Of a stretch of 64,000 nucleotides of DNA, positions 15,822 through 17,666 are shown one piece after another. The position numbers were made by a program, and so were the translations under genes. The notes beneath the pieces were generated by a model. The model had not been told where the DNA came from. It saw only the letters and a program-made list of their open reading frames with translations, and did not search any database. Each line of letters opens with the position of its first letter. The stretch's first letter is position 1. The DNA is from Escherichia coli (GTDB lineage Bacteria; Pseudomonadota; Gammaproteobacteria; Enterobacterales; Enterobacteriaceae). The stretch is taken from assembly GCF_016903815.1 (NCBI RefSeq), contig NZ_CP069973.1, one strand, 5' to 3'.

Positions 15822-16039
15822 AAAACGTTAAAATTCAATGCAATGAAGGCATGGAGGAGGTCGCTTTAATATGTTTTATGTTTAATATTTATTAATTGTT
15901 TATTTAATATAAAAAAATATTATATATAGGGAGATCAAATACAACGGTTTACTTGTTATGATGCAAACATTGGTTAGTTAGTGAGATACATCGCCATCAA
16001 TTGGGTAACTTTACCCGTGGAAAGTTAACGCTTTCTAAC

Positions 16040-16235
16040 ATTTACCCCGCGCAACGCCCCTGCCAGCGACAAGAGTCACAGGATCAGGCGGTATGGCGTA
16101 TGGGTATTCGAACCCTTTGGGCGACCAAGGGTTCGTGGAGCAGGGGGCTAGTGCTGTTCAATCTCATCCTTATGAGGGCGAACCATAGTGTTGGAGCAGG
16201 CATATCGTTTGCACACTATGGGCATAAGGAGCAAA
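16040..16235 (+). ncRNA. candidate structured non-coding leader (possible retron msr/msd-like RNA); boundaries not resolved
   Basis: GC-rich, stop-rich stretch between A and the cargo genes with a 9-bp perfect stem (CGAACCCTT / AAGGGTTCG, 16109-16135) and imperfect ~33-nt direct repeats (each containing TGGAGCAGG) about 56 nt apart. Confidence 0.3.
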
Positions 16236-16238
16236 TCA

Positions 16239-16393
16239 TGAAGAATGATAAATTAACCAACGAACAGCAGGCGCAGAACAAGTCAAACCTGAAAAAGTGG
16301 GCTGGTTATGTTTGGAAATTAATCAAATGGGGTATTAGACTGTTTGATTTAGCCACTCGAGCACTGGACTACTTTGAAGGGGGTGATGAGTAA
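16239..16393 (+). CDS. small hypothetical protein (51 aa)
   Basis: Strong SD (AAGGAG) 7 nt upstream of ATG; amphipathic Lys/Trp-rich peptide; AT-rich cargo. Confidence 0.35.
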
Positions 16394-16417
16394 TGCGTCC
16401 TCCCTAGTTTCAATAGC

Positions 16418-16750
16418 ATGGAGTTGCCTATGTTACACAGAGCCCTTCGTTTAATAAGGCAATACCATAAAGAGTCATTGGTTGATTTATCAACATCTTT
16501 AGGTATTCCAAAAGAAAAAATAGTAGAACTCGAAAGTGGGGTTTGGTCGCCTACAATTGATGTTTTACAGCGTTACGCCTCCCATTTCGATATGCCGGTA
16601 TCTTCTTTAGTATTTTTTTCAGAATCGTTAGGTACGCAGGGGCGTTTATCTAAGCGTTTCCGTTTAAATTTAGCTGGTAAAGTATTAGATGTTATTGAGT
16701 GGGCGAATAAGAAAAATGAAAAGACGAATAAAACTCAAAATTTCCACTAA
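16418..16750 (+). CDS. XRE-family helix-turn-helix protein (start may be 16430)
   Basis: HTH segment (SLVDLSTSLGIPKEKIVELESG); directly upstream of and overlapping the RT gene. Confidence 0.6.
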   Translation: MELPMLHRALRLIRQYHKESLVDLSTSLGIPKEKIVELESGVWSPTIDVLQRYASHFDMPVSSLVFFSESLGTQGRLSKRFRLNLAGKVLDVIEWANKKNEKTNKTQNFH

Positions 16751-17666
16751 AAATAAATCTTACGATATAATTGATTCGCCGTTTTATAAAATGAGAAGTA
16801 AAAGGAAATTGGCTTCTTTATTGGGGGTTGATGTAGGGGATTTATCAACCTTAAAAAAAGATGAAGGCAATTATTCTATTTTTGAACAGTTATCTAAAAA
16901 CGGAAAGCCACGTAAGATACAAAAACCATTAGAAAAATTAGATGTGGTGCATACTCGTATTGCAAGTCTGCTATCGCGAATTACTTTGCCAGATTATCTA
17001 CATTCTGGAAAGAAGGGATGTTCTAATGTTACTAATGCTAAAATCCACCTTAATAATGAAAGGTTGATGACAACCGACATCAGGGCTTTTTTTCCATCAA
17101 CTACCAGAGAAATGATATTTTCATTCTTTTTTTCTGTTATGAAGATGTCATCTGATGTTGCGGATGTATTATCGTATATATGTACTTGCTATGGGCGTTT
17201 GCCTACAGGTAGCAGGATTAGTATGCCTCTTGCATATTTTGCAAATTCCAGAATGTTCGGAGAAATACACCAACTTTGTAATAAACTACACGTAAATATG
17301 TCTGTTTATGTTGATGATCTAACTTTTTCAGGACAAAACGTTAATAGACTATTTTGTTCAGTGATTCGCAAAATAATAAATAAGCATGGTCATGTGATGC
17401 ATGCGGATAAAACAAAAATTTATAGTAGAGAAAAGCCTAAGTTGGTAACAGGTGTTATTGTTTTGGGCGGTTCTTTAAAAGTCAGGAATAAGCAGCATCT
17501 TTTAATGTCTCAAGAAATTGAATATTGGAAAATGATAAAGGATGCAGCGTGTGCAAGAGAAACTCATACTGCCAAAAAGTTATTTGGACGATTGCATTCT
17601 ATGGGGGTAATTGAACAACGTTATAGATCAAAGGTGCTTACATTAAAAGCAAGTACTGCACTTTAA
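16716..17666 (+). CDS. retron-type reverse transcriptase (start could be 16689)
   Basis: RT motifs TDIRAFFPS (motif 2-like), RLPTGSRISMPLAYF, YVDD (SVYVDDLTFSG), ADKTKI, and the retron-associated VTG triplet (KLVTGVIV); about 317-325 aa. Confidence 0.75.
   Translation: MKRRIKLKISTKNKSYDIIDSPFYKMRSKRKLASLLGVDVGDLSTLKKDEGNYSIFEQLSKNGKPRKIQKPLEKLDVVHTRIASLLSRITLPDYLHSGKKGCSNVTNAKIHLNNERLMTTDIRAFFPSTTREMIFSFFFSVMKMSSDVADVLSYICTCYGRLPTGSRISMPLAYFANSRMFGEIHQLCNKLHVNMSVYVDDLTFSGQNVNRLFCSVIRKIINKHGHVMHADKTKIYSREKPKLVTGVIVLGGSLKVRNKQHLLMSQEIEYWKMIKDAACARETHTAKKLFGRLHSMGVIEQRYRSKVLTLKASTAL

Follow-up and report, generated by a model that had tools for sequence, protein, structure and literature searches.

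A probable Vpa2-like type VI retron as cargo in the A-cos-Q hotspot of a P2-like prophage of Escherichia coli

The window analysed here, a stretch of 64,000 nucleotides (nt) of Escherichia coli DNA, contains a P2-like prophage in which the slot between the replication gene A and the portal gene Q carries a retron. The locus combines a structured RNA, an open reading frame (ORF) of 51 amino acids (aa) for a small protein (SP), a gene for a helix-turn-helix (HTH) protein and a gene for a reverse transcriptase (RT). Judged by its HTH gene, RT gene and RNA, it is a type VI retron as defined by Mestre et al. 2020, with all its components present, and it almost certainly belongs to the lineage of Retron-Vpa2, named 'Large'. 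Taken as a whole, the locus is probably a type VI retron of the Retron-Vpa2 ('Large') lineage that serves as defence cargo in the P2-like A-cos-Q hotspot and works by a Vpa2-type mechanism; for the Vpa2-type mechanism by itself, the balance tips only slightly in favour. The gene content, the family, the conservation of the RNA, a sequestered ribosome-binding site (RBS) and a direct repeat in the RNA can all be read from the sequence.

The prophage is inserted between pflA and pflB and extends from an integrase gene at about 9.9 kb to ogr at about 43 kb. Its limits were judged from E. coli 7/2 (NZ_CP023820), a genome identical to the window up to about 20.5 kb, and the annotation of that genome is applicable to the window up to this point and not beyond. 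Gene A ends at 15821, gene Q is found at 19652-20686 on the minus strand, and the terminase gene comes next, also on the minus strand. Phage P2 itself carries tin/old between gene A and cos. The cohesive-end 19-mer of P2, GGCGAGGCGGGGAAAGCAC, has an exact copy without mismatches at 19464-19482 on the plus strand. This copy of cos fixes the right-hand limit of the cargo block, and together with the end of gene A it therefore defines 15822 to about 19440 as the variable cargo slot.

The cargo has a GC content of 0.30-0.40 compared with 0.52-0.58 in the prophage backbone. On the plus strand it starts with an AT-rich spacer (15822-15981, GC 0.25), followed by a GC-richer noncoding stretch (15982-16237, GC 0.516) and then by the 51-aa ORF, the HTH gene and the overlapping RT gene (GC 0.33-0.40). 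An earlier reading of the letters made without database searches (here called the sequence-only reading) had described an AT-rich acquired block in the P2 tin/old position, with a GC-rich structured leader, a 51-aa ORF with a strong Shine-Dalgarno (SD) sequence, an XRE-type HTH gene and a retron-type RT with FFPS, YVDD and VTG motifs, and had likened it to an HTH-associated retron class. All of these elements were recovered, and the class is type VI. The coordinates were retained as well, except that the starts given for the HTH and RT genes, 16418 and 16689, are those of the longest ORFs and have been corrected to 16430 and 16716. A profile search with the RT and a search of the leader for structure and repeats had also been proposed; retron models won the former, with type VI best and Drt3a negligible, and the latter gave a conserved fold with inverted repeats in the a2 and a1 positions and a duplex across the SP ORF.

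The RT gene (16716-17666, plus strand) encodes 316 aa. The start at 16716, within a longest ORF of 16689-17666, is backed by homologues and by the PGAP annotation of an identical locus. The protein matches the PADLOC model RT_VI with an E-value of 1.1e-105 over model positions 1-278 of 279, the runner-up being RT_III-A at 5e-45, and all 25 PADLOC matches shown for it are retron RT models. RVT_1 is the only Pfam profile found. The motifs NAKIH (17034-17048), FFPS (17088-17099), YVDD (17307-17318) and VTG (17445-17453) are all present, and three of them are retron signatures: NAKIH, which corresponds to NAxxH, at residue 107, YVDD at residue 198 and VTG at residue 244.

The HTH gene (16430-16750, plus strand) lies upstream of the RT gene and overlaps it by 35 nt. 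Its product, a Cro/C1-type protein of 106 aa, matches the PADLOC model HTH_VI at 7.2e-30. The longest ORF is 16418-16750; the likely start at 16430, where GGAG and five nt (TTGCC) precede the ATG, is the one used by PGAP, and the PADLOC model alignment begins at residue 5. HTH proteins of type VI retrons are of the Cro/C1 type, 91-110 aa long and encoded upstream of, or overlapping with, the RT gene, and the protein in the window has all of these properties. By homology, it would be a repressor of reverse transcription and/or an antitoxin.

The placement of the RT in the type VI clade of retron RTs, clade 3, is based on profile scores, sequence identities and the published type VI tree. With WP_000746343.1 (P0002), found in the type VI 'Large' lineage of that tree (Garcia-Rodriguez et al., 10.64898/2026.04.27.721009), it shares about 81% identity. 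The RTs of two other E. coli alleles of the module, from O157 and from strain C5, are labelled 'Large', the lineage containing Vpa2, in the same tree. On the other hand, SPs resembling those of the cl2075 sublineage (67-75 aa) were found only beside RTs that are 37-39% identical to the RT in the window (loci L022 and L031). The labels of the sister RTs and the restriction of cl2075-like SPs to distant RTs therefore assign the retron to the Vpa2 lineage.

A locus in Vibrio parahaemolyticus (L092, 3001-3960) links the window to Vpa2 more directly. Its RT (P0076) is 54% identical to that in the window, and it encodes a 55-aa SP with K15, I39, F43 and F45 and an HTH protein with R7, which are the residues mutated in Retron-Vpa2; 55 aa is also the length quoted for the Vpa2 SP. 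From the match in mutated residues and in SP length, L092 is therefore taken as Vpa2 or a very close relative. The HTH protein in the window is 49% identical to that of L092 and conserves R7.

The SP gene (16238-16393, plus strand) has the SD sequence AAGGAG 8 nt 5' of its start codon. An ORF of 47-55 aa with an invariant ATG start was found in 18 of 18 loci, and it is kept together with the RNA in all 17 full-length homologues examined. Nonsynonymous divergence (dN) is lower than synonymous divergence (dS) in every comparison between alleles, giving dN/dS below 1. Because length and start codon are conserved and dN/dS is below 1, the SP ORF is a genuine gene. The dS of the SP gene is only 0.1-0.47 in comparisons where that of the RT gene exceeds 1.5, for example 0.28 versus 2.5 for Klebsiella, which indicates selection on RNA structure within the coding sequence. 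A depressed synonymous divergence in the SP gene has also been found in the cl2075 lineage (Garcia-Rodriguez et al., bioRxiv 10.64898/2026.04.27.721009).

Searches of PADLOC and NCBIfam with the 51-aa ORF gave no match, and it is recognised by PHROGs families and synteny only, with a hit to phrog_15287 (function unknown) at 3e-39. The N-terminal half of the protein is polar and basic, the C-terminal half is rich in W, I and L, and the sequence ends in an acidic tail, FEGGDE. A single long helix is predicted, with a predicted local distance difference test score (pLDDT) of 87-90 over the W/I/L-rich residues 21-40. The SP is syntenic and alignable with the 55-aa SP of L092, to which it is 24% identical. 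An SP toxin defines the SP-HTH-RT type VI retrons as described in two preprints (bioRxiv 10.1101/2025.10.22.683967; 10.64898/2026.04.27.721009), and by homology the SP in the window would be toxic as well.

At the nucleotide level, homology across genera extends over the leader, the SP coding sequence and some 20 nt past the stop codon. A search with an nhmmer profile found the whole RNA element upstream of an RT gene in 19 loci, including L092 (E = 6e-73); these correspond to 17 distinct homologues, since L001 stands for the sequence of the window itself and L024 is a duplicate of L023. The conserved core of this hybrid RNA (hyRNA) is located at 15982-16413 on the plus strand and consists of an msr-msd-like domain, a riboregulator arm, the SP coding sequence and a 3' tail. 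Folding of 15930-16430 gives -167.6 kcal/mol (z = -4.2), and none of 100 shuffled sequences was as stable.

Covariation was tested with a consensus structure of 71 pairs on a MAFFT alignment of 18 sequences, with controls in which the pairing partners were slid by 1-3 columns. Standard pairs are formed in 90.1% of the cells compared with 41-53% in the slid controls, 43 of the 71 pairs are changed on both sides (14-26 in the controls), and so are 155 cells (23-61 in the controls). Neither the paired fraction nor the covariation score was matched by any of 500 shuffles. A permissive Rfam scan of 15000-20000 and a scan of the whole window at gathering thresholds gave no retron or other family over the leader.

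The hyRNA presumably is one transcript of roughly 430-480 nt, from about 15935 or 15982 to 16413, and this transcript would serve both as template for reverse transcription and as mRNA of the helical SP. The AT-rich intergenic stretch upstream (15822-15981, plus strand) is, by its composition, the presumed promoter region and would include the 5' end of the RNA. It is partly conserved among the enteric alleles, and a TATATA block at about 15919-15927 aligns with TGCTATATAA in E. coli C5. A scan for a sigma-70 consensus promoter upstream of the hyRNA found no site.

The 5' part of the RNA resembles an msr-msd region. Two short, conserved msr-like hairpins, SL1 (16002-16007/16012-16017) and SL2 (16019-16025/16030-16036), pair in 93-94% of the cells, with compensatory changes in five of six pairs in SL1 (helix 2) and three of seven in SL2 (helix 3). 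They are followed by a long stem-loop at 16043-16105, the predicted main template for reverse transcription (msd). The base of this stem-loop, CCC 16045-16047 with GGG 16102-16104, is conserved with compensation (helix 4), and its hypervariable interior is less conserved than any other part of the locus, being 17-49% identical in distant relatives where the flanks are 60-100% identical. The hairpin SL4 (16109-16135; helix 5, 6 of 11 pairs compensated) is predicted to be the template for a 5' hairpin in the full-length multicopy single-stranded DNA (msDNA), and this segment is 100% identical in six enteric alleles.

Directly 3' of the predicted template, in the canonical a2 position, lies the left arm of an inverted repeat, IR-L TGGAGCAGGGGG (16136-16147). 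The right arm, IR-R CTCCCTAGTTTCA (16400-16412), occupies the canonical a1 position and starts 7 nt past the SP stop codon. A closing duplex of 12 bp between the two arms is predicted in 18 of 18 homologues (-13.0 to -18.8 kcal/mol) and is also present in the minimum-energy fold of the window itself; helix 6, which represents it in the alignment, is 100% paired, with a U-A to C-G change in four of the 18 sequences. The 3' tail at IR-R is 85-100% identical in enteric alleles and 60-85% identical in the most distant relatives. Through this duplex, riboregulator and SP coding sequence form one closed domain that adjoins the predicted template. The msr-msd-like domain and the SP gene are part of a single conserved fold.

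A pairing between the 3' tail and an a1-like segment at 15982-15987, suggested by RNAalifold for 12 sequences, was rejected as the main conformer; its energy is -4.5 compared with -15.5 kcal/mol, and it is lost in the Vibrio and Xenorhabdus relatives. The segment itself, TGAGAT, is conserved upstream of SL1 and weakly complementary to GTTTCA in the tail, and G15993 is invariant in 18 of 18 homologues. Either of the two could be related to priming.

The riboregulator arm (16167-16230, plus strand) sequesters the RBS of the SP gene. An anti-SD strand, TCCTTATG at 16167-16174, pairs with CATAAGGA at 16223-16230, which contains the SD sequence, and the two enclose a strongly covarying hairpin at 16183-16221; in helices 10 and 11 of the arm, 14 of 15 pairs are compensated. 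Of the 18 homologues, 17 have the SD sequence paired in their minimum-energy fold. Two further helices involve the SP coding sequence: GAACAGCA at 16262-16269 pairs with TGCTGTTC at 16152-16159 (helix 7, four of eight pairs compensated), and GGCGC at 16270-16274 pairs with GCGTC at 16395-16399 (helix 12, four of five pairs compensated). The direct repeat GGGCGA has one copy in the msd region and one in the riboregulator. The first, at 16119-16124, forms the top of SL4 (the terminal loop 16121-16124 and two closing G's), and the second, at 16176-16181, lies in an internal loop adjoining the anti-SD strand. A direct repeat is common to 14 of 18 homologues, and in L092 both copies shift together to GGACGA(A).

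Retron-Vpa2 has a "hybrid RNA" of about 470 nt that holds the msr-msd and a translationally repressed toxic SP (Zhang et al., 10.1101/2025.10.22.683967). According to the same source, this RNA has three arms, with RBS and start codon in stem-loops, a 3' end that folds back on the first arm via inverted repeats and a conserved direct repeat. The msDNA has been mapped to 'a long stem loop' within the msr-msd portion and has a full length of 86 nt, including a 23-nt extension at its 5' end. RT, HTH protein and RNA form a complex in which the HTH protein represses reverse transcription; phage Red-type recombination proteins and Gam cause msDNA to accumulate, and SP translation requires msDNA.

The locus in the window has the same order as Vpa2, hyRNA(SP)-HTH-RT, with the HTH gene overlapping the RT gene. 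The Vpa2-type RNA can be aligned end to end with that of the window and shares with it SL1, SL2, the variable stem-loop, SL4, the closing inverted repeat, the sequestered RBS and the direct repeat. Both SPs (51 aa in the window, 55 aa in Vpa2) have a hydrophobic C-terminal helix and an acidic GGD tail, and R7 is present in both HTH proteins. The direct repeat differs, being GGGCGA in the window and GGACGAA in Vpa2, and so does the template stem in sequence and in length (60 nt in the window, 51 nt in the Vpa2-type locus). The carrier is an E. coli P2-like prophage in one case and a Vibrio chromosomal island in the other.

Canonical retrons such as Retron-Eco1 (Ec86) are similar to the window in having the NAxxH, YxDD and VTG motifs, an upstream structured noncoding RNA (ncRNA) with a template stem-loop, and an inverted repeat that abuts the 3' end of the template. 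They differ in that the partner of this template-proximal repeat is found at the 5' end of the msr, whereas in the window it is located about 250 nt downstream, past a coding sequence. Moreover, the toxin in the window is encoded within the RNA, and in the Vpa2 model the msDNA activates the toxin instead of neutralising it. If the long-shot reading given further below is true, the priming geometry would be permuted relative to the canonical a1/a2 retrons, with a priming duplex formed across the toxin ORF. A duplex spanning the toxin ORF was not found discussed in the sections read of the two type VI preprints (10.1101/2025.10.22.683967; 10.64898/2026.04.27.721009).

The proposed mechanism for the locus follows that of Vpa2, and msDNA production, the msDNA boundaries, the trigger and the toxicity are predicted by analogy. 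RT, HTH protein and RNA would assemble as a complex in which the HTH protein keeps reverse transcription low, and the host RecBCD would remove the scarce msDNA. Phage recombination and anti-RecBCD functions, such as Exo, Beta and Gam of lambda, would then allow msDNA to build up. The msDNA is predicted to be about 91-95 nt long and complementary to about 16045-16135, with the long stem-loop and SL4 as template. In L092, these two elements span 82 nt, which is near the 86 nt of full-length Vpa2 msDNA, and the SL4 side may correspond to the 23-nt 5' extension of that molecule. The 5' hairpin of the msDNA, as the complement of GGGCGA at 16119-16124, would anneal to the second GGGCGA at 16176-16181 beside the anti-SD strand, and with the RBS released, the SP would be translated and the infected cell arrested.

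Several observations weigh against this interpretation. Identity to the Vpa2-type locus is limited to 54% for the RT and 24% for the SP. The RT of L092 reads YVDD, whereas the preprint writes YADD (mutated to YAAA) for Vpa2; the preprint may use the motif name loosely, or L092 may be a near relative rather than Vpa2 itself. The direct repeat has 6 nt and not 7, and a repeat of this kind was reached in 40 of 1000 shuffles, so that it is weakly significant when taken alone. The anti-SD helix is only 67% paired column-wise, which is because of register shifts in the MAFFT alignment, made from sequence without guidance by structure. The branch-point G and the transcript ends cannot be assigned from the sequence, and the mechanism would be carried over to this locus by homology. 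A further difficulty is that Retron-Sen3, the second studied type VI member, makes single-stranded DNA (ssDNA) and SP constitutively and is controlled post-translationally (10.64898/2026.04.27.721009). Because Sen3 is also of type VI and works otherwise, the Vpa2 mechanism is not simply transferable.

Sen3 is a Salmonella retron of the cl2075 sublineage with a 79-aa SP that has an N-terminal extension; its HTH protein is a post-translational antitoxin, and its trigger is the inhibition of RecBCD (10.64898/2026.04.27.721009). The retron in the window might work in this way, with constitutive SP and ssDNA, an HTH protein that binds the SP, and release of the toxin upon inhibition of RecBCD by a phage without any need for new msDNA. 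This is the strongest of the alternatives and is nevertheless rather unlikely. In its favour, the mechanism is published for a type VI retron and the HTH protein is highly conserved. Sen3 resembles the window in its SP-HTH-RT organisation, in a long-range duplex that joins ncRNA and SP coding sequence directly after the SP stop codon, in the hypervariability of a central stem and in the sequestration of the RBS; because both lineages have these RNA features, they do not separate Vpa2-type from Sen3-type control.

However, Sen3 belongs to another sublineage, and the SP in the window has 51 aa. RT, HTH protein, SP and RNA all align with the Vpa2-type locus, and, as mentioned above, cl2075-like SPs are confined to loci with distant RTs. 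In addition, Retron-Eco12, an E. coli type VI relative of Vpa2 that was cloned in plasmid pMRM38 and defends against lambda-vir, has no detectable basal msDNA, like Vpa2 (10.1101/2025.10.22.683967). Among the relatives, phage defence is known for Vpa2, Eco12 and Sen3. The Vpa2-type mechanism is favoured over that of Sen3 because of the lineage assignment and the lack of basal msDNA in Eco12. Eco12 is a plausible identity for the retron in the window or for one of the three sister alleles in E. coli, whose nucleotide identities to it are 84%, 78% and about 75%.

The position of the closing duplex allows an extension of the Vpa2-type mechanism. IR-R begins 7 nt past the SP stop codon, and helix 16270-16274/16395-16399 is partly coding. 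Because of this arrangement in the predicted structure, it is conceivable, albeit a long shot, that a ribosome terminating on the SP melts the closing duplex, so that a given RNA molecule could undergo either reverse transcription or SP translation but not both. If true, the published model would gain an inbuilt switch for feedback or commitment.

The cargo block also contains a gene for a 454-aa protein with an FRG domain (17775-19139, minus strand), which matches the PADLOC model PDLC04936 of the candidate defence system PDC-S15 (9.2e-98, residues 168-451) and the Pfam FRG profile (5.3e-21). The N-terminal part of about 165 aa has no match in Pfam, PADLOC or NCBIfam. The retron and this gene could form one combined system with the FRG protein as an extra effector or sensor. 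The two are adjacent and convergent within the same AT-rich block, occur together in the 59 nearly identical copies from E. coli, and Rousset et al. 2022 give them as a single arrangement. Among the retron loci examined, however, the FRG gene accompanies only the allele of the window. The neighbours of the retron in O157, 65COLEC, Klebsiella, Serratia, Yersinia, Dickeya and Vibrio, where there are any, are unrelated and have no PADLOC match; one P2-like prophage, in Serratia marcescens, has the retron as its sole cargo between genes A and Q. Since the FRG gene is on the opposite strand, it is in a separate transcription unit, and FRG proteins are a stand-alone candidate (PDC-S15) in PADLOC. 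A combined system is therefore very improbable, and the FRG gene is treated as an independent passenger and a separate defence candidate.

The neighbour in E. coli C5 (L004, NZ_CP010122, 2865-6184), a 465-aa gene of unknown function that is convergent with the retron, is likewise unrelated to the FRG protein. The retron of this strain lies beside yeiP, outside any prophage.

The sequence-only reading had suggested that the small ORF and the FRG gene could make the locus an undescribed variant. This part of it did not survive: the ORF is the SP of the SP-HTH-RT type VI retrons and is kept throughout the homologues, other retron loci lack the FRG gene, and the exact set of proteins had already been listed by Rousset et al. 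2022.

Abi-P2 RTs reportedly occur in the same P2 hotspot. That the RT is instead a defence or mobile RT of another kind (Abi-P2, DRT/UG or group II intron) with an unrelated structured untranslated region as leader is hardly credible: NCBIfam retron models were matched below their curated cut-offs only, but the best PADLOC matches are all retron RT models, full-length for type VI, Drt3a of NCBIfam reaches no more than E = 0.0023 (17 bits against a cut-off of 200), the protein, of just 316 aa, lacks any additional domain and has the NAxxH and VTG motifs specific to retrons, and the leader, which covaries, accompanies this RT clade in different genera. Because the sub-threshold NCBIfam matches are to other retron families, it appears that NCBIfam has no model for type VI retron RTs.

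The 1.9-kb module was found in 99 of 5426 complete E. coli genomes and is always chromosomal. There are four allele groups in E. coli: one with at least 99% identity to the window (59 genomes), one at about 84% that includes O157:H7, one at about 78%, and a single allele at about 75% over the RNA only. Three of the groups occupy the same P2 A-Q slot, and the fourth is represented by C5. In Klebsiella, Serratia and Yersinia, the trio of a 51-aa ORF, an HTH gene and a gene for a 316-aa RT turns up again in the same hotspot of P2-like prophages, and an SP-HTH-RT trio is found in other contexts in Dickeya and Vibrio. The module is also carried by isolated phages, with 99.7% identity in Peduovirus P22H1 and 80% in Klebsiella phage ST147-VIM1phi7.1.

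Other parts of the prophage carry cargo as well. A full-length gene for the Shedu nuclease SduA (35039-36265, plus strand; PADLOC 1.4e-219) is situated in a low-GC island (0.41) between the tail-fibre assembly and tail sheath genes, which is a second P2 cargo slot. With SduA, the prophage therefore has at least three defence or candidate modules. A 261-aa ORF (28900-29685, minus strand) in a low-GC patch between a virion-morphogenesis gene and the baseplate gene V matches phrog_2407 (unknown function) at 1.8e-148 and has no PADLOC match; it may be a further moron or cargo gene.

Compared with E. coli 7/2, the closest genome found via the retron, positions 1-20521 of the window are identical, scattered substitutions occur from about 20522, and these are followed by insertions and deletions. 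On this comparison, the late region of the prophage is mosaic. In the chromosomal flank between serS and dmsA, the enterobacterial small RNA STnc130 (Rfam RF02084, 140 bits) was found at 951-1085 on the minus strand.

The position of the retron invites a comparison with P2 old/tin, which is located in this slot, between gene A and cos, and likewise acts in lysogen exclusion, through unrelated proteins and by an unrelated mechanism. Old of P2 excludes lambda in a manner that depends on the lambda red and gam genes (the Spi phenotype). Because this exclusion depends on the Red/Gam functions that trigger type VI retrons, the retron at the old position looks like a functional replacement at the hotspot.

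The kind of retron and its gene arrangement are already known, and existing profile models call the system as "retron type VI". Rousset et al. 2022 list WP_001754918, WP_016239054, WP_023148839 and WP_023148838 as a P2-hotspot arrangement, and a row with the HTH protein of the O157 allele is labelled "Type-VI retron" in their curated system table. It is because of this listing, the presence of the sister alleles in the type VI phylogeny, the detection by profile models and the published role of SP and RNA in relatives that the system is regarded as known. As a discovery, it has little weight, since the two preprints on relatives explain the small ORF and the structured leader. Its value is rather that of a worked example, a natural member of the Vpa2 lineage borne by P2-like phage in E. 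coli, with four diverged alleles and isolated P2-like phages. Together, these make up a ready comparative series for the hybrid-RNA model in its native host, offering a hypervariable template stem, a near-invariant SL4 and 3' tail, and a covarying riboregulator.

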